Below are positions 1-32,903 of a DNA stretch of 32,903 bases, piece after piece. The notes beneath the pieces were generated by a model that was not told where the DNA came from, searched no databases, and saw only the letters and a list, made by a program, of their open reading frames with translations. Source of the DNA: a virus; IMG/VR virus record IMGVR_UViG_3300001346_000002. One strand, written 5' to 3'. Both the position numbers and the translations under genes were made by a program. The stretch's first letter is position 1; every line of letters begins with the position of its first letter.

Positions 1-97
1 GTAAAAGAGAAACAAAAAGCAGAAGCAGCACAGCGTAGAATGGAGGAACTAAAAAGAAGATGAGCGAAGGACTAGTAACAAAGCATAGCACAATAAC
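1..97. repeat. 97-bp terminal direct repeat. An identical copy lies at 32807..32903, so this is either a circular-assembly overlap or true terminal redundancy.
   Basis: Read directly: gtaaaagagaaacaaaaagcagaagcagcacagcgtagaatggaggaactaaaaagaagatgagcgaaggactagtaacaaagcatagcacaataac occurs at both ends of the window. Confidence 0.95.
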
Positions 98-1826: not shown

Positions 1827-3458
1827 ATGGTTACAGAGAAACTTATAATAGAGGGAGTTACTATACCGATAGACAAGGGTATTTCTACTGTGCTAACTTT
1901 TAGCATCAAAGATATTCAACAACCCGATAAGGTAAAGTCTAGTTTTAGTAAGACAATTAAGCTACCGGGAAGTAAGGCAATAAATGATAAGCTAAATTTT
2001 ATCTTTGAGGTAAATAGCGATTCTACATTTAATCCTAACTTGAAACTAGATGCGGTTTACTATCAAAATGACATAGCAGTATTTAGTGGTTTTATACAGT
2101 TAAAAGACATTCACAAAAAAGACTATAACCAAGTTGAATATAGCGTAGTGCTATTTGGAGAAACTGCTAATATCTTTAGAGAGCTAGGTAACAAGTTTCT
2201 GAATGACTCAGGTATGTTATGGAATGAGTTAGACCATGACTATACAAGAGTAATACAAGAAAATAGTTGGCAGACCTCATACATAGAAAATGGAGTAGTT
2301 ACACCGTTTCAACTTGGAAGCGGATATGTTTATCCAATGATTAATTACGGAAATGATACAGACATAAGCGTATACAATGTAGATGAGATGTTTCCTGCTG
2401 TTTATGCTAAGGAATACATAGATAGAATGTTTGCGGATTCAGGCTATACCTATACATCGACATTTTTAAACAGTCTACTATTTAAGCGTTTAATCATCCC
2501 TTTTAATGGCAAAGAATTTAAAAGTACTCAAACAGATTTAAGTCCTAGAAGGGTAGAGGCAAATACACCTTTATTTGTATCTAGTGGAAGTAATAACTTT
2601 ACTTTAGATTCATCTATTTACTCAAGCAATAGCTTCGTAGAAAATACAGTAAGACTTTCTAATGAGGTTGTAGACGCAAATAACCAATACAACTCAACTA
2701 CAGGGGAGCTAACAATAGGAGCAACTGGTTTGTATAGAATTTCATTTGATGCAATTATACAAATGGAAACAACTCCACAAGCAGGCGCAGCAGCAGCAGG
2801 GGATTTAATAGCAAATGGAAACGCTAATTTTTTGAATAATTTTGGAGTTTATGTGAATGGGGTATTTCAAAACGCTGTAACCTCTTACACTTTTGCAAAT
2901 AATTTAACTCCTGCTGTAACTTATCAAACAGCTAACCCTACATTATACCCAGATAACAACTTTTTAAATCCTCCAGGAAATGGACTTGTTTCCAGAAACT
3001 ACAACCCGCCAAACCAATATCAAGTAAATACAGACATACAATTAAATTCTGGAGATGTAGTAACTATTAAAATAGCTAGTGCTTGGAATCTTAGGGTGTT
3101 CAATTCTTCTGTAAATGGATATCCATTTCTACCTCTTTCTCAATTTAAACCTTACTATGATGTTAATAGTACACCTTCGCCACCTGTACAAATTAAAGAC
3201 GAGTACGATGCAGATTTTAAAATAATATTGTCTAGCGCGAATCTTTCTTTAAACATATTAGACTCTCCTTATTTAGAGGGCGACACAGTAGACATGGCTA
3301 GCGCTATCCCTGACAAGGTAAAACAAAGAGATTTTCTAACGTCTATTATAAAGATGTTTAACCTCTATATGATACCCGACGAGAATAACCCTAAGAATAT
3401 TATAATAGAACCTAGAGAGGATTTTTATACTACAGATGTAATAGACTGGAGTCAATAA
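1827..3458 (+). CDS. Large tail/host-recognition protein, N-terminal segment (543 aa). The gene continues in the +1 frame from 3445.
   Basis: The ORF ends ..IDWSQ-TAA at 3456..3458. The adjacent frame is open from 3445 and reads straight into the 3601..4800 ORF. The Asn/Ser/Thr/Gly-rich composition is tail-fibre-like. Confidence 0.55.
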   Translation: MVTEKLIIEGVTIPIDKGISTVLTFSIKDIQQPDKVKSSFSKTIKLPGSKAINDKLNFIFEVNSDSTFNPNLKLDAVYYQNDIAVFSGFIQLKDIHKKDYNQVEYSVVLFGETANIFRELGNKFLNDSGMLWNELDHDYTRVIQENSWQTSYIENGVVTPFQLGSGYVYPMINYGNDTDISVYNVDEMFPAVYAKEYIDRMFADSGYTYTSTFLNSLLFKRLIIPFNGKEFKSTQTDLSPRRVEANTPLFVSSGSNNFTLDSSIYSSNSFVENTVRLSNEVVDANNQYNSTTGELTIGATGLYRISFDAIIQMETTPQAGAAAAGDLIANGNANFLNNFGVYVNGVFQNAVTSYTFANNLTPAVTYQTANPTLYPDNNFLNPPGNGLVSRNYNPPNQYQVNTDIQLNSGDVVTIKIASAWNLRVFNSSVNGYPFLPLSQFKPYYDVNSTPSPPVQIKDEYDADFKIILSSANLSLNILDSPYLEGDTVDMASAIPDKVKQRDFLTSIIKMFNLYMIPDENNPKNIIIEPREDFYTTDVIDWSQ

Positions 3459-3600
3459 GCTAGACTATTCTAAAGAGCATAATCTTACACCAACTGCTGT
3501 AACTAATAAGCAAAAATACATATACACTTACAAGCAAGATGCTGACTATTACAATAAGAAATATGAATCTAGTTGGCTAGATATATACGGAAGTAGAAAC

Positions 3601-4800
3601 GTGTATCTCGAAAATGACTTTAATAAAACAGACCACAAAACAGAGCTTATCTTTTCGCCTACTCCAATGGTAGGGCAGCTAACAAATGATAGAGTAGTAA
3701 GCACAATAATAGATGTGGATGAGACGCTACAGCAAAAGACTATTAAGTCAAATATTAGAATACTTTACTATTCAGGTTTAAAAGATAGTATAATTAACTG
3801 GACTCATGAAGCTATATCTGGAGATGTTATACAGACTCGCTATCCTTATGCTGCACATTTCGATGACCCATATACTCCGACTATAGATATTAATTTCGGA
3901 CTACCAAGAGAAATATACTGGGATAATACTTGGTCGAGTATTACGATAACTAATGCAAACCTTTATGAAACATATCACAGAAAAGAATTTGAGCAGCTTA
4001 CAAATAAAGACAGTAAGATATTTAAAGGTTACTTTTTGTTAAACCCTACAGATATTGCTAACCTATCATTTAGACCTAGTTACTTTTTTGATAATGAATA
4101 CTGGACACTACATAAGGTTATGTACAGTAGCTCGATTTATCAACCTAGTAAATGCGAGTTCTTAAAATTAAAGTCAGTTCCTATACCAACATCAACATCG
4201 GCATTGGTATCGGCAGGTAGAGCTTTTATAGGCGACGAGGAAGCACCAAACATTTATAAAAATACTCTATCAGGAAACAATGTATTAAATACTAAGTCTA
4301 ACCATGTAGATGGCTTAAACAACTTTATAGACAGAACTGCAATGTTTGTAGATATAAAAGGAGATTCAAATAAGGTATCTACTAATGCTAAAAACATAAC
4401 TATATCAGGAGACAATAATATTATCTATCCAGATTTAGAGAATGTAAGCCTAATTAATACAAGTGGAGTAACTATAACAGAGTCTAATGTAGCTTATGTA
4501 AATGGCGAGATTAAAGGAGCAGGAAGCGTATTAACAATAGATACTAGTACTACAGCGGACGAAAGTATTACTACTTATTTATGCGATACCTCAAGCAACA
4601 AAATTACTGTTACCCTGCCTGAGTTTCCAACAGTAGGAAAGGTTTGGAACTTTAAAAAGATAGCTGTAAATTTTGTAATGATAATAAGAACTCCTCTTGG
4701 TTCTGCAACCACTATAGACGGTTTAGCAGATATACGAGTTACTGGCTACAATAATTCATACTCTGTTCAATTTGACGGAATAAACTATAAAATAATATAA
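3601..4800 (+). CDS. C-terminal segment of the same tail protein. The GTG at 3601 is probably not the real start.
   Basis: The frame is open with protein-like sequence from 3445 (TGVNKLDYSKEHNLTPTAVTNKQKYIYTYKQDADYYNKKYESSWLDIYGSRN-VYLEND..). There is no in-frame ATG between 3445 and 3601. Confidence 0.55.
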   Translation: MYLENDFNKTDHKTELIFSPTPMVGQLTNDRVVSTIIDVDETLQQKTIKSNIRILYYSGLKDSIINWTHEAISGDVIQTRYPYAAHFDDPYTPTIDINFGLPREIYWDNTWSSITITNANLYETYHRKEFEQLTNKDSKIFKGYFLLNPTDIANLSFRPSYFFDNEYWTLHKVMYSSSIYQPSKCEFLKLKSVPIPTSTSALVSAGRAFIGDEEAPNIYKNTLSGNNVLNTKSNHVDGLNNFIDRTAMFVDIKGDSNKVSTNAKNITISGDNNIIYPDLENVSLINTSGVTITESNVAYVNGEIKGAGSVLTIDTSTTADESITTYLCDTSSNKITVTLPEFPTVGKVWNFKKIAVNFVMIIRTPLGSATTIDGLADIRVTGYNNSYSVQFDGINYKII

Positions 4801-5614: not shown

Positions 5615-7552
5615 ATGGCAGACGATAAGGTAGCATTAGAAATATTTATAGAAGCAGACAAAGCTCAAATGTCTTTAGGGGATTTAGAGGCAGGCTTTGA
5701 CTCTATGAAGGAAAGACTTAAAGAAGTCGGCAGAGGCAGCGAGGAGTTCAAAACCCTTTCTACGGCAATGGCTAACACCTCCAAAGAAATTAAGAATATA
5801 GAGCTAGGCTTTGAAGGTTTGGACAGAGAGCAGGTAGCTAGTGAACTCGGAAGTGTTGCAGGAGCTGTAGGAGATGTAACAGCTAGTCTAGTCTTAATGG
5901 GTGGAGAATCTGAAACAATGGAGCAGATAGGCGCAAGTATTGAAAAAGCTATGGCTATTTCTATGGGGTTCAAAGGAGCTATAGAAGGGTTAAGCTCTGC
6001 AAATAAACTTTATAATAACTTACTAAAACAAGGTAAAGTCGCGCTTATTGCTAAGACAGTAGTAGAGAAAGCAGCAGCAGCAGGAACATGGTTACTTAAT
6101 GCAGCTAACAAGGCATTGAACATTACTTTAAAAGCTAACCCTATCGGATTAATAGTTACTGCTCTAGGTTTAGTAGTAGCTGGGGTAGTATATTTTAAGG
6201 ATTCTATAATGAGCTTAATAGATACAGCTTTAAAACCATTTCAATGGATTATAGACATTCTCATTGATGGCTTACAAGCTATGGGTATTATGGCAAGTGA
6301 TGAAGCTATAGCTCAAGAGAAAGCAGCAGAAAAGAAAATAGAAAGCTATCGGAAGCAAGCAAAAGAACTAGAAAAACTAAGAGAGGCACATGAGAGATTA
6401 TCTGAAAAGGTATTAGGCGATTTGGAATATGAACTAGAATTACTAAAAGCTAAAGGAGAAGATACAGCAGAAGCAGAATGGGATATAGTAAACCAAAAAA
6501 AGAAAGCAGCAAAAGAAGCTAAAAAAATAGCACAGGACGAATATAACAACTCTAAGAAATTAATAGACCTAAGAAGGGCGCAAAATAAAGAGGTAACAGA
6601 CGAGGACATTCAAGCTCTTAATGCTTTAGTTGATAACGTACACGCTACTAGAGACGCTTACACAGATGCCACAAGAGACCAGACTATATTTTTTGCTAAC
6701 CGTAAAAGACAAAGAAAAGAGGACAGAGAAGCAGAAGCAGAAGCGGATAAAAAAGCAGCAGCAGAGGCAGAAGCAGCAAGACAAAAGGCATGGGAAGCAG
6801 GAGCAGCAGATAGAGCTATGGCTAGGTCTAAAGAACAGCAAGCTAAGAAGGATGCTTTAATGGAGGACATCGAAAGGGTAGAGATAGATAAGACCATGCA
6901 GACTGAGGAGCTAGATAGGCACTCAATACATATAGAGGGGTTAATATCTAACGAGCAAGCTCTAAGAGATGCAATGATTCAGTTTTCAGATGCGCAGTTA
7001 ATAAAGATAGAGGAGGAAAGACAGGCAAGACTAGCAGCTAACCAAGAAAGACTAGAAAGCGCATCTCAAGTAATCGGAGCAATAGGTAGCTTAAATAGTG
7101 CAGCATTAGCAAATGACCTAAAGAATGCAGGCAATAATGAAGCACTAAAAGAGAAGTTAAGAAAGGCTAGTTTTGAACGTGAAAAGAAACTAAACATAGC
7201 AATGGCTTTGGTAAATGGCGCACAGGCTCAAATGTCTATACTAGCGCAAACACCCAAAGCAGATTTTGGAATCGCCACAGCTATAGCAATGGCAGCAGCA
7301 GCAGTTACAACTATAGCACAGATAGCAGCAATTAAAGCCACATCTTATCAAGGTGGCGGTAGTCCTGCAAGCCCTGAAACAAGTACAGCACCAAGTGCAG
7401 GAGGAGCAGGAGCAGCAGGTGGAGGAGCAGCCATAAGTCCAGTAAGTAACACTAGCACTATACTAGGTAATCAACAAGTATATGTAACTGAAACAGACAT
7501 AACAGAAACACAAAATAATGTAAGCGTAATAGAAGAAAGCGCAACTTTTTAA
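5615..7552 (+). CDS. Tape-measure-like or internal virion protein, 645 aa
   Basis: Long Ala/Glu/Lys-rich coiled-coil segments. There is a hydrophobic membrane-like stretch (PIGLIVTALGLVVAGVVYF), a second hydrophobic Ala-rich segment near the C-terminus and a Gly/Ala-rich tail. Confidence 0.5.
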   Translation: MADDKVALEIFIEADKAQMSLGDLEAGFDSMKERLKEVGRGSEEFKTLSTAMANTSKEIKNIELGFEGLDREQVASELGSVAGAVGDVTASLVLMGGESETMEQIGASIEKAMAISMGFKGAIEGLSSANKLYNNLLKQGKVALIAKTVVEKAAAAGTWLLNAANKALNITLKANPIGLIVTALGLVVAGVVYFKDSIMSLIDTALKPFQWIIDILIDGLQAMGIMASDEAIAQEKAAEKKIESYRKQAKELEKLREAHERLSEKVLGDLEYELELLKAKGEDTAEAEWDIVNQKKKAAKEAKKIAQDEYNNSKKLIDLRRAQNKEVTDEDIQALNALVDNVHATRDAYTDATRDQTIFFANRKRQRKEDREAEAEADKKAAAEAEAARQKAWEAGAADRAMARSKEQQAKKDALMEDIERVEIDKTMQTEELDRHSIHIEGLISNEQALRDAMIQFSDAQLIKIEEERQARLAANQERLESASQVIGAIGSLNSAALANDLKNAGNNEALKEKLRKASFEREKKLNIAMALVNGAQAQMSILAQTPKADFGIATAIAMAAAAVTTIAQIAAIKATSYQGGGSPASPETSTAPSAGGAGAAGGGAAISPVSNTSTILGNQQVYVTETDITETQNNVSVIEESATF

Positions 7553-7562
7553 AATAATAGAT

Positions 7563-8792
7563 ATGGAAAAAATAGAAGTATTTGAACTGGTAATAGACAC
7601 CGACGATGAAAGCGGAGTAACAGCTATAGCTTTAGTAGACCAACCTGCAATAGACTCAAATTGGATGGCATTTAGTCAGCAGACAGAGTACAAGTTTAAC
7701 ATTAAAGACGAGGAGAAGCGAATAATAGAAGGCTACTTTATGGTTGCTGATTTACTTATCCCTAGAATAGGAGAGCAAGGCGAAAAGTTCTTTGTAAAGT
7801 TCTCAGCTAAGACAATAGAACAGATAAGAGAAAAACAAAGTAGGTTAGGTTTAAACAATAACTTTAATTTAATGCATGACCCTAGACAAATAGCAGAAGG
7901 GGTTTATATGTTAGATAACCTTATTATAGACAATGAAAGAGGTAAGGTAGCTCCAAAAGAATTTGAGAAAGTTCCTAACGGTAGTTTGTGGGGTTCTGCA
8001 AAAGTTGACAATGACGAAATATGGGAGCAAGTAAAGGCAGGGGAGTTCTCGGGATTTAGTGTAGAAGGTATGTTTAAACAACTTGAACCTGTAACAATGG
8101 ACGAGGAAACAATAAACAAAATAATCAAAACTATACAAGATTTTGAAAAAAGTATAGATGACAATGTACAACTAAGTAACAAACAAACAATAGATAATAT
8201 GAGTAAAGAAACTTTAGACAAAGTAAAGAGCTTAATTTTTGGCGAAGAAACAACAGAGGTAGCTGTAGAGGCAACTCCAGAAGTAACCGAAGTTAAGTTG
8301 ATGGCTGCTGAATTAGCAGATGGAACAATGGTTAACATCGACCCAGCTTTAGAAGTTGGTGCAGTAGTAACTGTTGAAGTAGAGGGCGAAGTAGCTCCAA
8401 TGCCAAACGGAGATTATCCACTAGCAGACGGAACAGTAGTAACTGTAATGGAGGGAGCAATTTCTGACATTAAAGAAGTAGAAGCAGAGGAGGAGGAAGC
8501 AATGGAAACAGAAGCAACTCCAAAAGCTGAAACAGTAACAGAAGCAAAGATTCGTAAAATTATTGAATCAACTGAAACTGTATTCAATGAGCAATTTGCA
8601 AAACTTACAGAGGAGTTAGAAACTGTTAAAGCAGAATTTGCTAAATACAAAGAAGAAGCAGATACAAAAGAGAAAGCTATGTTTTCAGCAGTAGAGGAAT
8701 TAGCTAACGAATCTAGCGTAGCACCAATTAAGAAAAAAAGAAGCGGTGTAATTTCACCAAAAAAGAAATCAATTTTTACAGTAAATAAATAA
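7563..8792 (+). CDS. Prohead protease (XkdF / S78-like N-terminal domain) fused to an acidic scaffold-like C-terminal half
   Basis: The N-terminus (SGVTAIALVDQPAIDSNWMAF .. NLMHD .. GSLWGSAKVDNDEIWEQVKAGEFSGFSVEG) matches my recollection of the XkdF-type phage protease domain. The C-terminal half is Glu/Ala/Thr/Val-rich, and the gene lies immediately upstream of the capsid gene. Confidence 0.65.
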   Translation: MEKIEVFELVIDTDDESGVTAIALVDQPAIDSNWMAFSQQTEYKFNIKDEEKRIIEGYFMVADLLIPRIGEQGEKFFVKFSAKTIEQIREKQSRLGLNNNFNLMHDPRQIAEGVYMLDNLIIDNERGKVAPKEFEKVPNGSLWGSAKVDNDEIWEQVKAGEFSGFSVEGMFKQLEPVTMDEETINKIIKTIQDFEKSIDDNVQLSNKQTIDNMSKETLDKVKSLIFGEETTEVAVEATPEVTEVKLMAAELADGTMVNIDPALEVGAVVTVEVEGEVAPMPNGDYPLADGTVVTVMEGAISDIKEVEAEEEEAMETEATPKAETVTEAKIRKIIESTETVFNEQFAKLTEELETVKAEFAKYKEEADTKEKAMFSAVEELANESSVAPIKKKRSGVISPKKKSIFTVNK

Positions 8793-8811
8793 ACATTAAA
8801 AAAAAATTATT

Positions 8812-9753
8812 ATGGGTTTTGAATTAGGAACATTATCAGCATACATAGAAGACCAAGACTTTCCATTGATTGCACAGATGCAAGCAACAGGAGGATTAGC
8901 AGCAGTAGCAGATATTCAAACAGGAATTAAAGGGAGTTCACATTTACAGTTTTTATCAACTGATGTTATTTTTGGAGCAGATGGCTGCACAAGAACAGGA
9001 AACGCAGATACGGACATCACACAAAAAACTTTAACTGTCGGAGCAATCGCTGTGTCAGAAGATTTATGCGTAAAAGACCTTAACGGATACTGGGCGCAAG
9101 TTCTAGTGAAGAAAGGAGCAGCAGGAGAGGAAGAAATGCCAGCAGAAATCGAAGCGGTTTACATGGAAAAGAAGATGAATGCAATGCAGAATCAACTTAC
9201 TATCTCTGACTTTCAAGGAGACACAGCAAGTGCAACAAATAACTTGTCTTACTATGACGGTCTTTTGAAAATTGTAGATGCAGGTGCGCCAGTAGATGGT
9301 AACACAGGAGCTGTAACAGTAGCAACTGGAATCTCAAGCTCTAACGTACTAGACATCTTAGATGGTATGTGGGAAAGCATCCCTGATAATATCTCTGAAG
9401 CAGACGACCTTTCATTATGGGTGCCGACATCAGTTTACAAAAAATATGTAGTAGCACTTAAAAACGCTAACTTATTCCACTATTCTGGAGATGGCGAGCA
9501 AGTAAACCTTTACGGAACTAACGTAGCTTTAAGAAGCACAGTAGGACTACCGGGAGCAGCAGGAGACGAGAGAATGATTTTAACAAGAGACTCTAACGTA
9601 GTTATCGGAATGGACGGAGACGCTGACGAGGACGCAATGAAAGTGCGTTTAGACCCAGTTACTGAAAAGAACATTTTCTTCGATGTTACCTTCAAACGTG
9701 GCGTACAAGTACGATTTGTAGACGAATGTGTACAGTTCACATTAATTCCTTAA
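8812..9753 (+). CDS. Major capsid protein, 313 aa
   Basis: It directly follows the protease/scaffold gene, has a long A-rich leader and is followed by a strong intrinsic terminator. Size and composition fit an HK97-fold coat protein. Confidence 0.75.
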   Translation: MGFELGTLSAYIEDQDFPLIAQMQATGGLAAVADIQTGIKGSSHLQFLSTDVIFGADGCTRTGNADTDITQKTLTVGAIAVSEDLCVKDLNGYWAQVLVKKGAAGEEEMPAEIEAVYMEKKMNAMQNQLTISDFQGDTASATNNLSYYDGLLKIVDAGAPVDGNTGAVTVATGISSSNVLDILDGMWESIPDNISEADDLSLWVPTSVYKKYVVALKNANLFHYSGDGEQVNLYGTNVALRSTVGLPGAAGDERMILTRDSNVVIGMDGDADEDAMKVRLDPVTEKNIFFDVTFKRGVQVRFVDECVQFTLIP

Positions 9754-9778
9754 TAGGACTTTAACAATTAACTAAGAG

Positions 9779-9810
9779 AGGGGTGGGTAAAATACCTTAC
9801 CCCTTTTTTT
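9779..9810 (+). terminator. Rho-independent terminator after the capsid gene
   Basis: GAGGGGTGGGTAAAATACCTTACCCC followed by T7. GGGTAA pairs with TTACCC, or alternatively AGGGGT with ACCCCT. Confidence 0.8.
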
Positions 9811-9836
9811 ATAAACATTAAAAAAAATATAAAATT

Positions 9837-10352
9837 ATGGCATGTGCATTAACACAAGGTAGAGCTATTGACTGCAGAAACTCCACAGGAGGAATCTCAG
9901 AAATTTTAATTGCTAACTTTGGAGATATAACAATAGACACAGTAGCATCAGGAGTAATTACAGCATTAACTCAAGCAGGAGCTACTAACTTTTACCGTTA
10001 CTCTTTAGAAAAGGAAAACGGTTCTTTAATAGAAACTCACACAGGTTCTTTAGAGAATGGAACTAATTTCTACGATTCTGTTTTAGACTTTAACACTAAG
10101 AATTTAACAGCATCAGAAAACGAGGAGTTAACACTTTTAGACCAAGCTCAGTTATTCGTAATTGTAAAAGACATGAACGATAAATACTGGACAGTAGGAG
10201 CTTATCATGCAGCAGATAAATTAAGCGGTACATCAGTTACAGGCGCAGCTATGGGCGACCATAATGGCTACACGTATAGCATAAGCTCTAAGGAAGCAAA
10301 GCGGATGCTAGAAGTTGATATTACAGTAATTGAAGGTTTAACAATAGCATAG
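9837..10352 (+). CDS. Abundant virion protein, 171 aa (tail-tube-like or head-decoration-like, unassigned)
   Basis: It shares the capsid gene's 17-nt A-rich leader and has its own terminator, which implies high expression. Small beta-rich protein. Confidence 0.35.
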   Translation: MACALTQGRAIDCRNSTGGISEILIANFGDITIDTVASGVITALTQAGATNFYRYSLEKENGSLIETHTGSLENGTNFYDSVLDFNTKNLTASENEELTLLDQAQLFVIVKDMNDKYWTVGAYHAADKLSGTSVTGAAMGDHNGYTYSISSKEAKRMLEVDITVIEGLTIA

Positions 10353-10374
10353 TTTTAAACAACTAATTAAGGAG

Positions 10375-10404
10375 AGGGTAGCATTAATTTGTTACCCTTT
10401 TTTT
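10375..10404 (+). terminator. Rho-independent terminator, paralogous to the one at 9779
   Basis: AGGGTAGC-attaattt-GTTACCCT followed by T7. The upstream context TTTAAACAACTAATTAAGGAGAGGGT resembles TTTAACAATTAACTAAGAGAGGGGT at 9760..9783. Confidence 0.75.
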
Positions 10405-10618
10405 ATGCTCAAAAATAAAATACTTACAAAAAAGTTTGGTTTTGTCAATAATTGCTTAGAGCCATTTTAAAGCGTTTTAAGACACTTTCGCCTTTCGCTA
10501 GTATGCTACTATTAAAAAAAATAGTTCGTTAAAAGCCCATTTTTATTGGGCTGTAGAGCTAAAAATAATTAGTTAAAAATTAGGTTTATTAAAATATTTT
10601 TATTAAAGGCATTTATTT

Positions 10619-10648
10619 TATACAACTATTAATTTTTTTTACAATAGA
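10619..10648 (+). promoter_or_regulatory. Conserved 30-nt motif TATACAACTA-N6-TTTTTTACAATAGA, copy A. Candidate late promoter or initiation element, 4 nt before the ATG at 10653.
   Basis: 25 of 30 positions are identical to 32059..32088. The 10-nt and 14-nt blocks are identical and have the same spacing. Confidence 0.5.
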
Positions 10649-10652
10649 TAAT

Positions 10653-10817
10653 ATGGAGTTAAAAGATGAATATAAAAGAGGCGGTTCTGTCTACCATAAA
10701 GTAGTCGGACACGTTACCATAGTAAACGATAAAAATGAGTTTGCTAAATACAAAAAACTAGGACTAGATGTTTTCAAAGTGGAGAAAAAAAAGAAGGAAA
10801 AGAAAGATTCTGAATAA
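10653..10817 (+). CDS. Small hypothetical protein, 54 aa, with a Lys-rich tail
   Basis: Hand-translated MELKDEYKRGGSVYHKVVGHVTIVNDKNEFAKYKKLGLDVFKVEKKKKEKKDSE. It has a TAATG overlap with the next gene and is preceded by the conserved motif. Confidence 0.4.
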   Translation: MELKDEYKRGGSVYHKVVGHVTIVNDKNEFAKYKKLGLDVFKVEKKKKEKKDSE

Positions 10818-11212
10818 TGCCAATTTTGATAAACGAAAATACTACAAGCAATCTAACTTTAACACTAAAGGAAAAGACTACATTATCTACTCCCGTTTAT
10901 TTATTTCAGTTTAGAAATGTAACCGAGAAAGTTAGCTACTATTGTATAATGTCAGACACTAGCTTATACAAAGACAGATACAACGAATTTGTATTTACAG
11001 AAGGAACAGACCTACCATTAGCAGGAGAGCTTATATTAGGAGCAGGCGGTCAATATGAGTATTTTGTTTATGAGCAAACCTCAACAACTAACCTAGACCC
11101 TACCTTAGCAACTGGCTTAGTGGAAAGTGGCTTAATGGACTTAGAACGTGCAAGTACTACCTATAATCAGCACGACATAGATGTAACCTACAAAACACAT
11201 CAAGTAACATGA
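10817..11212 (+). CDS. Hypothetical virion-module protein, 131 aa
   Basis: The ORF is coupled to both neighbours: TAATG upstream and a 4-nt ATGA overlap with the portal gene. Confidence 0.5.
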   Translation: MPILINENTTSNLTLTLKEKTTLSTPVYLFQFRNVTEKVSYYCIMSDTSLYKDRYNEFVFTEGTDLPLAGELILGAGGQYEYFVYEQTSTTNLDPTLATGLVESGLMDLERASTTYNQHDIDVTYKTHQVT

Positions 11213-13128
11213 TGAACAAAGAAAATATTTTAATCTTTAATTTTGAAGCTAATAAGCCTCCAGTATTTAAAGAGGAAAGAGGGAAAGACTATATCGTATA
11301 TGGTACAGAAGCACCTTACAAGAATTTATACCCAGACTATTTAGTAGAGCTTTACAATACCTCAGGAAAACATAATAGTATAGTAAACGGAAAGACTAAT
11401 TACATAAGTGGTCGAGGTTGGAAAGTAGACCAAACAGTTAGAACTTTAGAGGACAAAGTTAAACTAGAAAACTTTATTAATCACGTAGGTAATGACTCTT
11501 TATTTGAACTTACAAAAAAGATTGTAAAAGACAATGAGCTTTTTGGCGGTTATGCTTTAGAAGTAATAGTTACTAAAGATGGCAAAGGTTTAATTATTAA
11601 TCATATTGACTTTGGAGACATAAGAGTCGGAGTTGAGGAGGATACTTATTTCTATACAAGCGACTGGGCAAGTAGAAAACCAACAAGCAACGAGGACTTT
11701 GAAACATTAACATCATTTCCTTTTGATGGTTCTGCAATTAAAGGTGAAAGATACATTTGTTATTACAAGAGTTATAGACCAAATCTCAAAGAGTATCCCT
11801 TGCCAAATTACATAAGCGGGATAAATTACATAAAGAGTGATTATGAAGTATCTAATTATGTATTGAACTCAATATCAAATGGTTACAGTGGCGGTACGAT
11901 TTGGAACTTTCACAATGGGCAACCTACTCAAGAAGCTCAAGCATACATAAAAAAACAGATTAAAAATAAACATCATGGCTCTAATAATGCAGGCGAACCA
12001 GTTATTATTTTCGACGATGGAAAGGACAAAGGAGTAGAGATAATATCTACTAACCCTAACGGACAAGACGACAAGTTTATTAATCTTAACCAACAGATAC
12101 AAGACGAAATTTTTACAGCGCATGGAGTAGATGCTTCTGTATTTATTAAAACAATAGACACAGGCTTTAGCAATAACGCAGACGAGTTAAGAGTAGCTAT
12201 TGAGGCAATGAATAGCAGTTACATTGAGCCTAACCAAATCATGTACGAAAAGTTATTTAATGACTTTGTTGTTTTGTTAGGAATGCCTAGCGGTTTAAAG
12301 ATTGAAAAGATTGCACCAATATCTACACCACTTAGCGAAAATGCTTTGACTGCTGTAATGACTACAGCTGAAATAAGAGAAATGGCAGGACTACCTCCAT
12401 TAAAAGCAGAGGAGCAATCAGGAGGAGCAGCAGACGCACTAGCTACATTATCTCCATTGGTTGCTACTAAGGTACTAGATAATATGACTGCTGAGGAGAT
12501 AAGAGGCTTAGTAGGTTTGAAAGGCTCGCCAACTATAACTAGAACAGAATCTAAGTTTAGCGAGGATGAGGAGTTTAAATTTGATTTGTCAGAGTTTGGA
12601 TATGCAGAAGATGAGCTAGAAGTAATAAGCGAAAAGGAGTTAGACTATAACCCTTTCGATTTTGCAGACATAGGAAGTATAGACAGCCAAATAATAGACA
12701 TCGTTAAAGCTACTCCTAAAGTAACAGTAGAGGAGATAGGGCAGCAAGTAGGGGAAACACCTAGCGAAGTACAAGAAAGGATAGATAGACTAGTTAAGAA
12801 CGGTTTATTAGACTTGACGAAAACAAAGATAAAAGTAACAGACGAAGGGGAGCGAGAAACATCTGAGTTAATTACAGTTTACAAATACAAGTTAAGACAC
12901 GACGCACCATCTTTAAGAGGTGGCAGAAGTAGAGATTTTTGTAGAAAGCTAATGAAAGAGAATAGAAGCTATGAGCTTAAAGATATTTTAGCAATGAATA
13001 ATAAACAAGGCTCTAATGTATTCGCTCATCGTGGAGGTTGGTATAATAACCCAGTAACAAAAACTAGAACCAATTACTGTAGACACGTATGGTCTGCACG
13101 TACGGTAAGACTTAAGAAAGATGCTTAG
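11209..13128 (+). CDS. Portal protein with an unusual C-terminal extension (winged-helix-like segment plus a basic Cys/His tail)
   Basis: The first ~400 aa have the HK97-type portal pattern (..HHGSNNAGEPVIIFDDG..VEIISTNPNGQDDKFINLNQQIQDEIFTAHGVDASVF..). The C-terminus contains IVKATPKVTVEEIGQQVGETPSEVQERIDRLVKNGLL and ..DFCRKL..YCRHVW. Confidence 0.7.
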   Translation: MMNKENILIFNFEANKPPVFKEERGKDYIVYGTEAPYKNLYPDYLVELYNTSGKHNSIVNGKTNYISGRGWKVDQTVRTLEDKVKLENFINHVGNDSLFELTKKIVKDNELFGGYALEVIVTKDGKGLIINHIDFGDIRVGVEEDTYFYTSDWASRKPTSNEDFETLTSFPFDGSAIKGERYICYYKSYRPNLKEYPLPNYISGINYIKSDYEVSNYVLNSISNGYSGGTIWNFHNGQPTQEAQAYIKKQIKNKHHGSNNAGEPVIIFDDGKDKGVEIISTNPNGQDDKFINLNQQIQDEIFTAHGVDASVFIKTIDTGFSNNADELRVAIEAMNSSYIEPNQIMYEKLFNDFVVLLGMPSGLKIEKIAPISTPLSENALTAVMTTAEIREMAGLPPLKAEEQSGGAADALATLSPLVATKVLDNMTAEEIRGLVGLKGSPTITRTESKFSEDEEFKFDLSEFGYAEDELEVISEKELDYNPFDFADIGSIDSQIIDIVKATPKVTVEEIGQQVGETPSEVQERIDRLVKNGLLDLTKTKIKVTDEGERETSELITVYKYKLRHDAPSLRGGRSRDFCRKLMKENRSYELKDILAMNNKQGSNVFAHRGGWYNNPVTKTRTNYCRHVWSARTVRLKKDA

Positions 13129-22895: not shown

Positions 22896-23953
22896 TATTA
22901 GAAAACAACTCAGGCAAAAAGTATTTAGATTCTATTAGGGATGGTAGCTTTAAACTAGGATTAGAAATTGGATGCCCTCTGGATTCACATCTGCGCTACA
23001 AGCAAGGTACATTTAATGTTATGGCTGGACACGCCAACGTAGGAAAGACTAAATTTATACTTTATTATTATCTTTGTTTAGCTGTAAAGCACTCTAAAAA
23101 GTTTTTAATCTTTAGTGCTGAGAATAGCACAGGAGGAATTAAAAGAGATTTAATACAACTCCATGCAGGTAAACAACTAAAAGAACTTGACGAGCAGCAG
23201 TATGAATATCATTTTAACTGGGTAGGCGAACACTTTAAATTTATAGACTTTGAACAGTTCTACAGAATTAACAAAAGGTTTATGAACTTTAGAGATGTGT
23301 TTAAAGCAGCTTTAGATGACTGCGAGTACTTTGATGCTTTGGTTATAGACCCTTACAATAGTTTAGCAACCTGCGAAGATATAAAAGGCAATAGCCACGA
23401 AAGAGATTATGCAGTAGCTAGTGAGTTTAGAATGTTCTGCAAACAAAATAATAAAAGTATTTACTTACTTGCTCATGGAAATACAGAAGCTCTACGTAAA
23501 ACTTTTACAAAAGGACATGATTTTTACGGACACCCTATTCCGTTAATGGCATCCGATATTGAGGGAGGCGGTAAGTGGGTAAACAGAGCAGATGACTTTA
23601 TCGTAATACATAGACTAACTCAGCACGAAAGTGAATGGATGAAAACAGAGGTACACATCCGCAAAATTAAAGAAGTAGAAACTGGAGGCACACCAACCTT
23701 TATGGAATCGCCAGTTATTTTTCACATGGACAAAGGAGGATTAAGTTTTAATTGTTACATTCGTCAAAAAGATTATAGTATATTGCCACCTAATGCAAAA
23801 AACCCATTAAGCGATATGCCAGTAGTAGAACCTAAACAAACGGAATTAAAACCAAATAAAGCATTTGATATAAACCATACCATAGAACCAAAGCCAACTA
23901 AAGACGAGGACTGGCTAAGTGGTTACATGGAAGAGGAAGAATTTAAGATATGA
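22892..23953 (+). CDS. DnaB-like (RecA-fold) replicative helicase
   Basis: Walker A is MAGHANVGKTKF and Walker B is ALVIDPYNSL. It follows the initiator gene with a 4-nt overlap. Confidence 0.65.
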   Translation: MILENNSGKKYLDSIRDGSFKLGLEIGCPLDSHLRYKQGTFNVMAGHANVGKTKFILYYYLCLAVKHSKKFLIFSAENSTGGIKRDLIQLHAGKQLKELDEQQYEYHFNWVGEHFKFIDFEQFYRINKRFMNFRDVFKAALDDCEYFDALVIDPYNSLATCEDIKGNSHERDYAVASEFRMFCKQNNKSIYLLAHGNTEALRKTFTKGHDFYGHPIPLMASDIEGGGKWVNRADDFIVIHRLTQHESEWMKTEVHIRKIKEVETGGTPTFMESPVIFHMDKGGLSFNCYIRQKDYSILPPNAKNPLSDMPVVEPKQTELKPNKAFDINHTIEPKPTKDEDWLSGYMEEEEFKI

Positions 23954-24591
23954 AAGTAACAGATAAAATAACAATAACGAATGAGGATAATATGCAGTTA
24001 ATGGCACGCTATCCAGACAACTATTTTGATTTAGCTATTGTAGACCCTCCTTATGGTATTGATGTTACTAAAATGACACTTGGGAATGGAAAGAAAAAAA
24101 TTAATAGGGGTTTATCAAATTGGGATAGTAGTATACCTACTTTAAAATATTGGAATGAATTGTTTAGAGTTTCTAAAAATCAAATAGTATGGGGAGCAAA
24201 TTATATGACAACATTTTTACCTCCAAGTATGGGTTGGGTGTTTTGGGATAAAGGAACAGGTGCAAATGATTTTTCAGATGGCGAACTTGCATATACAAGT
24301 TTTAATAGGGCATTACGAAAATATAAAGTTTCTTGGGTTGGTGCTAATGCTAATAATGGCACTCCAAGAATACACCCAACAGAAAAACCGATACAACTTT
24401 ACGAATGGTTATTAATGAACTACGCAAAAAAAAACGATAAAATACTTGATACACATTTAGGAAGTGGAAGTATAGCTATTGCTTGCCATAACAGAGGCTT
24501 TGAGTTAACAGCGTGCGAATTAGATAAAGAGTATTACGAAGCAAGTATTAAGAGATTTAAACAACAGACAGCACAACAAACAATGTTTTAA
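23950..24591 (+). CDS. Orphan beta-class DNA methyltransferase (N6-adenine or N4-cytosine family; the DPPY motif favours m6A)
   Basis: Motif IV (IVDPPYGI) is near the N-terminus and the AdoMet motif (ILDTHLGSGS) is near the C-terminus, which is the beta-class order. No restriction endonuclease partner is nearby. Confidence 0.75.
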   Translation: MKVTDKITITNEDNMQLMARYPDNYFDLAIVDPPYGIDVTKMTLGNGKKKINRGLSNWDSSIPTLKYWNELFRVSKNQIVWGANYMTTFLPPSMGWVFWDKGTGANDFSDGELAYTSFNRALRKYKVSWVGANANNGTPRIHPTEKPIQLYEWLLMNYAKKNDKILDTHLGSGSIAIACHNRGFELTACELDKEYYEASIKRFKQQTAQQTMF

Positions 24592-30393: not shown

Positions 30394-30849
30394 ATGAATA
30401 AAGAGCTAACGCCTAAGGAGCAGAAATTTGCAGAGCTATGTGTAACACTAGGTAATCAAACAGAAGCGTACAGACAGGCTTATAACGTCTCTAATAAAGA
30501 TGCTGAATGGATAAAAGTAAAGGCATCACAGATAGCAAGTAAGGATAACGTAAGGTTAACTATCAACAAACTAAAGGGAGAGCTATCTGAAACACATGGA
30601 ATAGATAGAGCTTTTATCTTACAAGGTTACTTGCAAATCATTTCAGATGCAGACTACACATTCCAGTTAGGAGCAGACAATACGCTAACTAAGGAAGATA
30701 AGCAAGCCTTTTATAGGATCATGAATCAAACTAAGAACACCGACAAAATAAGAGCCTTAGAAGCAATATCTAAAATGATGGGATTGAATGAGCCAGAAGT
30801 AATAGAGCATAAGCATACAGTCAAAACTTATAAAACAAACTGGGGATAA
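30394..30849 (+). CDS. terS: Terminase small subunit (Terminase_2-like)
   Basis: LTPKEQKFAELCVTLGNQTEAYRQAYNVS..AEWIKVKASQIASKDNVRLTI matches the HTH-type small terminase pattern. It lies directly upstream of terL. Confidence 0.75.
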   Translation: MNKELTPKEQKFAELCVTLGNQTEAYRQAYNVSNKDAEWIKVKASQIASKDNVRLTINKLKGELSETHGIDRAFILQGYLQIISDADYTFQLGADNTLTKEDKQAFYRIMNQTKNTDKIRALEAISKMMGLNEPEVIEHKHTVKTYKTNWG

Positions 30850-32058
30850 TTGGAGGAGGTAGACTTATATAGACCACATCCTAAACAAAGGGAGATACAT
30901 AAGGCACTAGACACAGATATAAAGTATTGTATAGTTTCTATTGGTAGGCAGTTTGGGAAGTCTACACTAGGGGAGAATCAATCTATTAAATGGGCATTAG
31001 AAAATAGCCATTGGAAAATAGGATGGGTTAGTCCAATATACAAACAAGCTAAGAAAGTTTTTAAGGACATAGAGAAAGCTGTAATAGGCTGCCCATTTAT
31101 TACCAACGTAAACAAAGGAGACTTAATACTAGAATTTGCTACAGATAGCTCTATACAGTTCTACTCAGCAGATGCCTATGATAGTATTAGAGGGGAGACA
31201 TTTGACGCTTTAATATGTGATGAGTTCGCATTCTTTAAACCCGAAGCATGGAACGAAGTACTTAAAGCTACTGTATTAGTGCGAGGCAAAAAGGTACTTA
31301 TCTTATCCACTCCGAAAGGGAAAAACCAATTTTATAATTTGTTTAACCTAGCAGAACACAATAGCAACTATATTTCATTTAGAGGTAGCTCATACGATAA
31401 CCCATTTATAGACCCTGCTGAAATAAAGGAAGCAGAAAGGAACTTACCAGACCACGTATTTAAGCAGGAGTACCTAGCAGAGTTTTTAGATAATGGGAGT
31501 AGTGTATTCAGAAATATACAAGAGTGCATTAAAACGTCTGTAAACACGTCTAGCCTTTATGCAGGAATAGATTTAGGTAGGTCTGACGATTATACAGTTT
31601 TAACTATTGTAGATTCAAACAATATAGAAGTCTACTCTGAAAGGTGGAGGCACATGGAATGGAGTGCAATAATTAATAACATAGTAACCCAGTTAAATAA
31701 GTACAGACCTAATACCTTAGTAGAAAGTAACGGAGCGCAAGACGCTATCTTCGAACAGATAAGAAACAAGGTAAGCTACAATAAGAACTCAATACAACCA
31801 TTCGTTACCACATCCAAAAGCAAGCAGAATATAATAGAGGACTTAATCGTAAAGTTTGAATCTATGGAGATCGGAATAATTGGACACGATTGGCAGATTA
31901 ATGAGCTAGAAGTATTTACTTACGAATACAATGTAAAGACTAGAGCAATAAAATACAATGCTCCTGTAGGCTTACATGACGATTATGTAATGAGTAGAGC
32001 AATAACTAACCACGCTTTAAAAACTATGAAAAGCTCAGGAAAGTATTTTGTATATTAA
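30850..32058 (+). CDS. terL: Terminase large subunit. TTG start immediately after the terS stop.
   Basis: Walker A is GRQFGKST and Walker B is ALICDEF. The nuclease-domain acidic residues are GIDLGRSDDYTV and GLHDDYVMS. There is no in-frame ATG upstream of Walker A, so the TTG at 30850 is required. Confidence 0.85.
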   Translation: MEEVDLYRPHPKQREIHKALDTDIKYCIVSIGRQFGKSTLGENQSIKWALENSHWKIGWVSPIYKQAKKVFKDIEKAVIGCPFITNVNKGDLILEFATDSSIQFYSADAYDSIRGETFDALICDEFAFFKPEAWNEVLKATVLVRGKKVLILSTPKGKNQFYNLFNLAEHNSNYISFRGSSYDNPFIDPAEIKEAERNLPDHVFKQEYLAEFLDNGSSVFRNIQECIKTSVNTSSLYAGIDLGRSDDYTVLTIVDSNNIEVYSERWRHMEWSAIINNIVTQLNKYRPNTLVESNGAQDAIFEQIRNKVSYNKNSIQPFVTTSKSKQNIIEDLIVKFESMEIGIIGHDWQINELEVFTYEYNVKTRAIKYNAPVGLHDDYVMSRAITNHALKTMKSSGKYFVY

Positions 32059-32093: not shown

Positions 32094-32774
32094 ATGAGAA
32101 TACCTAAAAGCCTTAAAGAAGTTTTAGTTAAGGACTACATACAGATAAACAAAATTCGTAGCGCAGAATACGATAACCCTTTTACTAGGACTATAGACCT
32201 ATTGTGTATTTTCAATGACAGAAAGGATGTTTTAAAGTGCAAACCATCTGAGTTAGCTATTGACCTTAACCACTTATTAGTAGAGCCTAGTAGAACTCTA
32301 AAACAGTATTTCACTATTAACGGTAAACGGTACGGAATAGTTAACCATATTAACGATTTGGAAGCAGGGCAATACATGAGCTTCACAACTTATTTAAAAG
32401 GGTTTGCAGATAACCCTAACGTACATATTGAGCAGATGCCTGACATTCTAGCTAGTGTTATCTTTCCAGTAGACAAGAATAATAAGGTAATGGCAATAGA
32501 ACCTAGTTACTTTCGTAACCTAGCAGATGACATACGTAACACAATGTCGATAGAAGATGCTTTCCCGATTTGTGTTTTTTTTTGTCTGCTGTCAGCGAAC
32601 TTACGTCAAACTACTCAGGACTTTTTGAACACGAAACTAGAGAGCATGACGGAGGAGAGCAGGGAAGCGATTTTGGAGGTAGCGAAGGATTTGGAGAAAG
32701 ATGGGGTTGGATTGCCACCCTCGATAACCTCTGCAATGGAGACTTTACAAAAAGACCATATTACGAAAAAATGA
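32094..32774 (+). CDS. Hypothetical virion-assembly protein, 226 aa. This is the 0-frame product of a candidate frameshifting gene (tail-assembly-chaperone-like logic).
   Basis: It is the first ORF of virion block 1 and contains the T9 run at 32575..32583 (codons GTT TTT TTT TGT). The -1 frame is open from 32540 to 32869. Confidence 0.6.
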   Translation: MRIPKSLKEVLVKDYIQINKIRSAEYDNPFTRTIDLLCIFNDRKDVLKCKPSELAIDLNHLLVEPSRTLKQYFTINGKRYGIVNHINDLEAGQYMSFTTYLKGFADNPNVHIEQMPDILASVIFPVDKNNKVMAIEPSYFRNLADDIRNTMSIEDAFPICVFFCLLSANLRQTTQDFLNTKLESMTEESREAILEVAKDLEKDGVGLPPSITSAMETLQKDHITKK

Positions 32775-32869
32775 ACGTGATAGAGTTTTTAAATATTTGC
32801 AGCTTTGTAAAAGAGAAACAAAAAGCAGAAGCAGCACAGCGTAGAATGGAGGAACTAAAAAGAAGATGA
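32540..32869 (+). other. -1 frame open window overlapping 32094..32774. It is either the C-terminal extension of a frameshift fusion or, minimally, a 32-aa micro-ORF from the ATG at 32771.
   Basis: The frame is open for 110 codons. It ends in a TGA that overlaps the ATG of the next gene (position 60 = 32866). The ATG at 32771 overlaps the 0-frame TGA. Confidence 0.45.
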
Positions 32870-32903
32870 GCGAAGGACTAGTAACAAAGCATAGCACAAT
32901 AAC
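32807..32903. repeat. Second copy of the 97-bp terminal repeat. It duplicates the end of the micro-ORF/frameshift product and the first 38 nt of the gene at 60.
   Basis: Identical to 1..97 by direct comparison. Confidence 0.95.

Follow-up and report, generated by a model that had tools for sequence, protein, structure and literature searches.

Does a run of nine thymines within a phage gene mark a point at which one reading frame is decoded into two proteins? This question is raised by IMG/VR virus record IMGVR_UViG_3300001346_000002, of which we analyzed a stretch of 32,903 nucleotides (hereafter the window). The run (T9) lies in a gene for a 226-amino-acid protein that follows the gene for the terminase large subunit (TerL), and it had been flagged from the letters of the DNA as a candidate site of programmed −1 frameshifting or transcriptional slippage. 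Reading the window directly, we found the run bordered by G at both ends. Its 0-frame codons are GTT TTT TTT TGT, for V F F C, and T TTT TTT thus forms a heptamer of the type X XXY YYZ in the proper phase. No stop interrupts the −1 frame between 32540 and its TGA (32867..32869), a codon that shares bases with the next gene's ATG (32866), and a −1 shift at the run would swap the last 63 residues for 95 others, giving a protein of 163 + 95 = 258 amino acids. The original prediction was accurate on all of these points, namely the position of the run, the in-phase heptamer, the open −1 frame (32540..32869), the exchange of the last 63 of 226 residues for about 95, and the overlap of the TGA with the next start codon. 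Among 2024 off-frame stop-free stretches within the window's genes (median length 6 codons, 99th percentile 48), the −1 stretch, at 109 codons, ranks first, and no other T run of 7 or more occurs within any of these genes; taken together, these two properties are beyond chance. Comparative evidence strongly supports recoding at the T9 site because the T run and the −1 open reading frame (ORF) are kept in every related locus, the −1 frame is under purifying selection, and natural in-frame fusions exist. As a candidate for recoding, by whichever machine, the prediction is borne out by these three lines of evidence.

The 226-amino-acid protein has 120 homologues in a large protein collection, nearly all of them also 226 amino acids long. 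At the DNA level, G-T9-G is present in 29/29 close viral contigs, the −1 frame stays free of stops over exactly 95 codons wherever the contig is long enough, and the −1 peptide is nearly invariant over its last 60 residues among these contigs. More broadly, a T run of at least 9 together with an open, conserved −1 extension (~90–95 codons) was found in more than 40 related contigs, down to 27–30% protein identity. Two loci at 63% identity (L030 and L031) have T10 with the same frame arrangement, and T9 is present in L032 (30% identity), L033 and L034. Four further lineages at 27–30% identity (L065–L071) all read GTT TTT TTT TGC, with the 0 frame stopping ~40 codons past the run and the −1 frame open for 90–93 codons. 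In L073–L075, the T9 run lies in codon phase 2 (GC-T9-GAA). The distant lineages have in common the −1 motif F..(R/K)WGW..TLD.L..GD..K....L(N/P)V.EF.....DK.K.E. It had been allowed that homologous phages might lack the open −1 frame or the T run; both are kept in the relatives.

One family member belongs to a cultured phage. Foldseek against BFVD led to Nonlabens (Persicivirga) phage P12024S, in which gp38 lies directly after TerL and contains CTT TTT TTT TAT (C-T9-A) in the same codon phase as the window. Read in the −1 frame, gp38 continues without a stop through to the end of gp39, a gene annotated separately, and contains the motif F.LKWSW. In the RefSeq record (NC_018271, L072; 23136..23830), gp38 and gp39 are annotated as separate hypothetical proteins and the frameshift is not annotated; gp39 is the 3′ part of the −1 extension of gp38, via the T9 at 23578..23586. 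The pair gp38/gp39 is a true member of the family, although it is too diverged to be reached by tblastn with the window protein. Indeed, DNA and protein searches of a cultured-phage collection with the window gene found none, as did a search with a divergent fusion as query, and P12024S/L was recovered from this collection only with P12024S's own protein as the query. Related-locus searches with P0222 or P0185 also found none, and a search with the −1 peptide alone matched solely short stand-alone ORF calls. We then performed an exhaustive profile search of the family, which yielded 2342 cluster representatives (E ≤ 1 × 10−3), 583 of them at E ≤ 1 × 10−10. This makes it a very large family, of which siphoviruses of marine Flavobacteriia are typical.

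Which of the two frames selection acts on can be read from 23 distinct close sequences, for which we calculated diversity by 0-frame codon position (given here for positions 1/2/3) and the ratio of nonsynonymous to synonymous polymorphism (pN/pS, Nei-Gojobori). Upstream of the run (zone A), diversity is 0.081/0.025/0.345 and the 0-frame pN/pS over codons 1–160 is 0.08, the −1 frame being not applicable there. Past the run, the first zone (B1, 32586..32693) is variable at every position (0.148/0.207/0.229; pN/pS 0.55 in the 0 frame and 0.72 in the −1 frame). The pattern then reverses: in zone B2 (32694..32771) diversity is 0.024/0.173/0.038, with a pN/pS of 4.98 in the 0 frame and 0.05 in the −1 frame, and in zone C, after the 0-frame stop, it is 0.043/0.325/0.089, with a pN/pS of 1.11 and 0.12, respectively. 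The wobble periodicity thus switches to the −1 frame from ~32694, at least 78 nucleotides ahead of the ATG of a 32-amino-acid "micro-ORF" to which the original prediction had drawn attention. That ATG is indeed at 32771, where it overlaps the 0-frame TGA, but the micro-ORF is no separate gene: it is the 3′ end of the −1 extension, and its Met is replaced by Leu in L065, L067 and L069.

Both alternative C-termini had been described as protein-like, and this holds for the −1 tail and for the early part of the 0-frame tail, but the last ~26 codons of the 0 frame are not selected on their own account. The 0-frame C-terminus looks conserved (DGxGLPxSITSAMETLQKD), but this is a shadow of the −1 frame, in which TGG GGN TGG reads as WGW while the 0 frame reads D-G-x-G. 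In distant relatives, the 0 frame ends at this point. The motif G[DVAG]G is found ~40 residues past the Phe-Phe pair in 84/147 representatives, with the stop a median of 2 residues later, and upstream in none. An AlphaFold2 (AF2) model of the short form has a predicted local distance difference test score (pLDDT) below 50 for residues 199–226. Over the first ~16–25 codons past the run, each frame retains a motif across lineages (0 frame, CNLS..L......Y...K; −1 frame, LQSL..LN..Y..LF), and both products therefore appear to be real. The comparison of both frames among related phages, proposed with the original prediction, gives purifying selection on the −1 frame from ~32694 onward and conserved motifs in both frames in the first part past the run.

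In the −1 extension, a continued helix leads through a disordered acidic/Gly linker to a conserved helical domain (F..RWGW..TLD.L..GD..K....LNVIEFL...DK.K.E), and nature has in places joined these parts to the N-terminal domain in a single frame. A profile search with conceptual fusions recovered P0139, a 257-amino-acid protein from a Tara contig seen in two samples; in its DNA (L076), the N-terminal domain and the "−1" domain are in one frame, GAT TTT ATC TTA replaces the run, and both other frames are closed. In P0138 (L077, 379..1020), there is a T10 where relatives have T9, with the long form in frame and the short tail still open in +1. Full-length structural matches of 258–267 amino acids were found in BFVD, with template modeling (TM) scores of 0.73–0.78. 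AF2 modeling of the window fusion from a mixed alignment (pLDDT 79, predicted TM score (pTM) 0.72) gave a confident helical/small-sheet N-terminal domain (residues 1–173) whose last helix crosses the junction, a disordered linker (180–204) and a three-helix C-terminal domain (205–257). Two other proteins from ~33-kb contigs, P0117 and P0118, swap between the two frames at other points; these swaps are probably indel errors.

We next considered what feature of the site is under constraint. Run lengths were tabulated for the best 148 of the 2342 representatives (mutual identity ≤ 50%) from the residues that surround the homologous Phe-Phe (FF) in the alignment; they are mostly inferred from protein sequences, with DNA checked in ~12 lineages only. 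Where FF is preceded by V, L or I (xTT, two Ts), it is followed in 122 cases by C, Y, W or S (T first), for a maximum run of 9, and in 4 cases, all with V before, by L, for a maximum of 10. Where it is preceded by A, D, S, T, R, C or G (xxT, one T), L (TTR) follows in 11/11 cases, which again permits a maximum of 9. In several cases, FFF supplies nine Ts by itself whatever the residue before, giving a maximum of at least 9, and there the flanks are free (T, R, E or V after; Q before). Overall, a T run of at least 9 is possible in 147/148 representatives (exactly 9 in 134 and at least 10 in 13), and a single one is limited to 7 (P0279, N-FF-T). The residue before FF predicts the residue after it: with P0279 included, L follows in 11/12 cases of the one-T kind vs. 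4/126 of the two-T kind (Fisher p = 3 × 10−12). DNA agrees with the inference wherever it is at hand: many lineages have a phase-1 T9, V-FF-L goes with T10, and A-FF-L (L073–L075) goes with a phase-2 T9. Compensating flank changes thus keep the run in three codon phases, of which DNA confirms phases 1 and 2. This argues that the constraint is on run length and not on the heptamer: since a tandem-tRNA heptamer needs only 7 Ts in phase 2 or 8 in phase 1 and the extra Ts are kept, homopolymer length would be the selected property.

These observations suggest the following mechanism. Standard decoding would yield the 226-amino-acid short protein, and in a fraction of expression events the frame would move to −1 at T9 to give the 258-amino-acid protein, in which the same 163-residue N-terminal domain is followed by the disordered linker and the small, strongly conserved helical C-terminal domain. 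The signal would be the homopolymer itself, conserved at a length of at least 9: RNA polymerase would slip and add one extra U to part of the transcripts, placing the downstream sequence in the −1 frame, and ribosomal tandem slippage on the embedded T TTT TTT may add to this. Because run length is conserved in any phase, we somewhat favor transcriptional slippage, acting alone or as the dominant process. Which machine slips and in what ratio the two products are made are matters that we infer; run conservation, selection on the −1 frame and the in-frame fusions are direct observations. More tentatively, transcriptional slippage at T9 might operate across the whole family and set the ratio of the short to the long assembly protein, the length-conserved, phase-independent tract being then the entire signal. 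A T9 run is the site of productive transcriptional slippage in Shigella mxiE. In many bacteria, selection against slippage-prone A/T runs becomes apparent at a length of nine, and 9A and 9T runs have been put to productive use, e.g., in Thermus dnaX (PMC1088944).

Several points weigh against slippage by RNA polymerase. Without exception, the X XXY YYZ heptamer is there and in phase, and the long form could thus also come from ribosomal −1 frameshifting alone. The Ts that flank FF double as second codon bases, the one after it in a conserved Leu/Phe codon of the −1 frame and the one before it in a hydrophobic codon, and part of the run-length pattern could therefore reflect selection on protein; the run-length table, moreover, is drawn mostly from proteins. 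The window also contains an A9 run (24426..24434, K-K-N) in a DNA-methyltransferase-like ORF (23950..24591) in which both off-frames are closed within a few codons and leave no second product, which would be costly if runs of 9 nucleotides slip efficiently in the host. Finally, replication slippage is also length-dependent.

The most serious competitor, which we nevertheless consider unlikely to be the whole explanation, is purely ribosomal: the tRNA-Phe pair in the P and A sites would slip back one base on T TTT TTT (32576..32582) on a faithful transcript. The window and all lineages for which DNA is at hand have the heptamer in perfect phase, and 2/49 family members weakly match Pfam Phage_TAC_7 (PF10109, the P2 E/E+E′ family; E ~4 × 10−4). 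There are classical precedents, as P2 E/E+E′ and lambda G/GT use such heptamer sites, lambda without stimulators (PMC5009743). However, slippage of this kind leaves it unexplained that two further Ts persist in every codon phase, 7 being enough after A-FF and 8 after V-FF. Nor is there a conserved stimulatory element: no conserved RNA structure was found on either side of the run (single-sequence fold z = 0.27; 0 pairs in consensus folds of 25 downstream and 20 upstream sequences), no Shine-Dalgarno-like element was found by the T run, and the phage genes are without Shine-Dalgarno leaders.

Improbable by comparison is slippage in the DNA itself, in which T9 would become T10 during replication as at a contingency locus, and a share of the genomes in each burst would encode the long form directly. 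Run-length dependence fits this explanation, homopolymers are hypermutable (PMC1088944), and the T10 of L077 has just the expected frames. However, L077 is the one such variant among more than 40 independent contigs, the rest of which have the same frame arrangement, and its T10 may come from an error in sequencing the homopolymer; the short product would also be missing if a genome had T10 only. Less probable still are two independent overlapping genes, with the −1 ORF translated from a start of its own, whether the TTG with which the run ends (32582) or the later ATG (32771). Gene callers do report ORFs of 95–99 amino acids from that TTG and one of 32–34 amino acids, but there is no in-frame start at the run in L030/L031 (T10), L073–L075 (GC-T9-GAA) or P12024S (C-T9-A), the ATG is Leu in several lineages, and selection on the −1 frame begins upstream of it; natural single-frame fusions exist, and an own start would need no conserved T run. 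Least credible is a sequencing or assembly error that hides a true T10 and a single 258-amino-acid ORF, a concern that had been raised at the outset, for although homopolymers are error-prone and the window has at least one indel without counterpart in 12 relatives (3444..3468), dozens of independent assemblies made in different projects have T9, as does the genome of a cultured phage, and the 0-frame tail is open for 40–63 codons with its first part conserved family-wide.

What might two such proteins do? Xu, Hendrix and Duda reportedly described in 2004 a conserved tail-assembly-chaperone frameshift in long-tailed phages. In lambda G/GT, the two products have a common N-terminal domain and the minor long form has an extra small domain (PMC5009743). 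By analogy, we think it somewhat probable that the two proteins of the window act together as tail assembly chaperones of a siphovirus infecting Flavobacteriia; architecture and genome context are the only grounds that suggest this function. In its favor are the shared N-terminal domain, the long form with an extra small domain, the presence of a tape-measure-like gene and the position as the first gene of the tail-gene block. The two members that match Phage_TAC_7 are joined by two that match a PHROG "tail protein" family, and the window protein itself matched no informative family in Pfam, PHROGs or NCBIfam. Other results weigh against this assignment: the best annotated chaperone match in BFVD (Kitkat) has an E value of 0.11, Foldseek against PDB gave no match (best E 1.8), and the gene is placed after TerL and not beside the tape-measure gene, which lies five genes downstream. 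A sequence profile against PDB gave noise only. The lack of adjacency had been pointed out in the original prediction and is confirmed here; the same non-canonical position next to TerL is found in L031, L073 and P12024S. The likeness to G/GT proposed there stands for the two-product recoding architecture; homology to known chaperones is not convincing, and the analogy is one of probable function.

Compared with lambda gpG/gpGT and P2 E/E+E′, the window gene is alike in having one start codon and two products with a common N-terminal part, the longer of which would arise through a −1 change at a slippery run into a start-less ORF. As with the gpG/gpGT type, the arrangement is kept despite sequence divergence, a tape-measure(-like) protein is encoded, and the long form is built as domain-linker-domain. 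The differences are in position, site and size. G/GT genes sit between the tube and tape-measure genes, whereas the window gene comes directly after TerL; the G/GT shift occurs a few codons ahead of the 0-frame stop, whereas here it would occur 63 codons ahead (about 40 in relatives); the N-terminal domain is larger (163 amino acids), with no detectable fold or sequence match to solved chaperones; and the signal in G/GT is a heptamer, whereas here it would be at least nine Ts in any codon phase. In this last respect the closer parallels are the A9 of Thermus thermophilus dnaX and insertion sequence (IS) elements (Baranov et al. 2005), which likewise have an evolutionarily preserved run of nine A or T in a coding region. 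In known 9A/9T cases, ORFs are fused via one inserted mRNA nucleotide and no RNA structure is needed, as would apply here; none of these cases, however, is a phage virion-assembly gene or comes from Bacteroidota, and slippage in the window is proposed from sequence conservation only.

The G/GT principle and transcriptional slippage at 9-nucleotide runs are each already well known. What is new is the likely combination of both, the size of the unannotated family and the phase-independent constraint on length; a literature search found no description of the gene family or of T-run recoding in flavophage tail genes. If slippage by RNA polymerase is correct, a tail-chaperone-like pair of a phage would for the first time be traced to RNA polymerase and not the ribosome, in hosts without Shine-Dalgarno-based translation signals. 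Compensation that keeps nine Ts in any phase would be unusually clean natural evidence for a length-dependent slippage signal, and the choice between ribosome and RNA polymerase is directly testable in the culturable Nonlabens phage P12024S. Annotation is affected as well: in thousands of phage genomes and contigs from metagenomes, RefSeq NC_018271 among them, the gene is entered as two or three unrelated "hypothetical" ORFs, where the real products would be a short protein and a fusion of roughly 255 amino acids. The two-product logic of G/GT appears to persist despite reordered tail genes and a chaperone without recognizable similarity, and this may help to locate the assembly chaperone in Bacteroidota phages with poor annotation.

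Features of the recoded locus and its neighbors, with positions in the window
Feature	Position	Strand	Basis and remarks
T9 homopolymer, candidate recoding site	32575..32583	+	holds the in-phase heptamer T TTT TTT (32576..32582); identical in 29/29 close loci
0-frame ORF, 226 amino acids, predicted short product	32094..32774	+	ORF list; 120 homologues; residues 1–163 are the N-terminal domain common to the predicted long product
−1-frame extension, 95 codons + TGA	32582..32869	+	C-terminal part of the predicted 258-amino-acid long product; alignment, model, pN/pS 0.05–0.12 in the −1 frame
Dual-coding or linker zone	32586..32693	+	both frames variable at all three codon positions
Overlap part with purifying selection on the −1 frame only	32694..32771	+	0-frame residues there are DGVGLPPSITSAMETLQKDHITKK, read as a shadow of the −1 frame
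32-amino-acid "micro-ORF" reported by gene callers	32771..32869	+	actually the 3′ end of the −1 extension
Downstream gene, 187 amino acids	60..623 (also starts at 32866 in the terminal repeat)	+	conserved neighbor; synteny in L031, L067, L073 and P12024S
Terminase large subunit TerL, conserved upstream neighbor	30850..32058	+	Pfam Terminase_6N 3.3 × 10−18; phrog_2 3.6 × 10−50
TerS	30394..30849		precedes TerL
Tape-measure-like protein, 645 amino acids	5615..7552	+	PHROG tape-measure matches for the N-terminal part

We also characterized the genomic neighborhood of the recoded gene. Bases 1..97 are identical to 32807..32903, and these 97-bp terminal direct repeats indicate a circularly closed contig of ~32,806 bp, so that the gene starting at 32866 is the 187-amino-acid ORF at the beginning of the window. 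Its counterpart in P12024S has a weak, sub-threshold HK97-gp10-like Pfam match (E 0.03), and Pfam matched nothing else among the conserved downstream neighbors. The order TerS-TerL-recoded gene-~190 amino acids-~400 amino acids is conserved, distant relatives included, and TerL is upstream of the recoded gene in L030, L073 and P12024S as well. Between the recoded gene and the tape-measure-like gene lie ORFs of 187, 400, 543, 399 and 217 amino acids. The tape-measure-like protein, helical and rich in A, E and K, includes a hydrophobic segment and ends in a C-terminus rich in Gly/Ala, and its presence makes the phage very probably long-tailed, if with an unusual gene order. Downstream of it are a protease-like gene and then a capsid-like gene, with the portal further on.

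TerL is less than 30% identical to that of any cultured phage, so that there is no close cultured phage, and a scan of genome contigs found no prophage copy and hence gave no direct clue to the host. The host is likely a member of the Bacteroidota because a Shine-Dalgarno-like leader was found in none of the window genes examined and the nearest cultured family member infects a flavobacterium. Of eight tailed flavophages counted in PMC8776804, seven are siphoviral, Nonlabens ones included.

Some further features of the window are worth recording. The gene order in 5615..13128 is unusual, with the protease-like and capsid-like genes directly after the tape-measure-like gene, and the portal lies ~12 kb from TerL, beyond the tail block. 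The portal-like protein (639 amino acids, 11209..13128) has a C-terminal match (residues 491–534, E 2 × 10−6) to an AsnC-type/winged helix-turn-helix, an uncommon feature among portals. Between ORFs 1827..3458 and 3601..4800, the window reads GACTGGAGTCAATAAGCTAGACTAT at 3444..3468, one base longer than the in-frame 24-nucleotide version of 12 relatives. The extra base, which lies outside any homopolymer, breaks a tail gene of ~980 amino acids (977 in L031) into the ORFs of 543 and 399 amino acids, and is either an assembly error or a genuine frameshift mutation. Finally, the capsid-like gene (8812) and a 171-amino-acid gene (9837) have a common A-rich leader, aaacattaaaaaaaa(t)...ATG, at 8785..8811 and 9812..9836, respectively.

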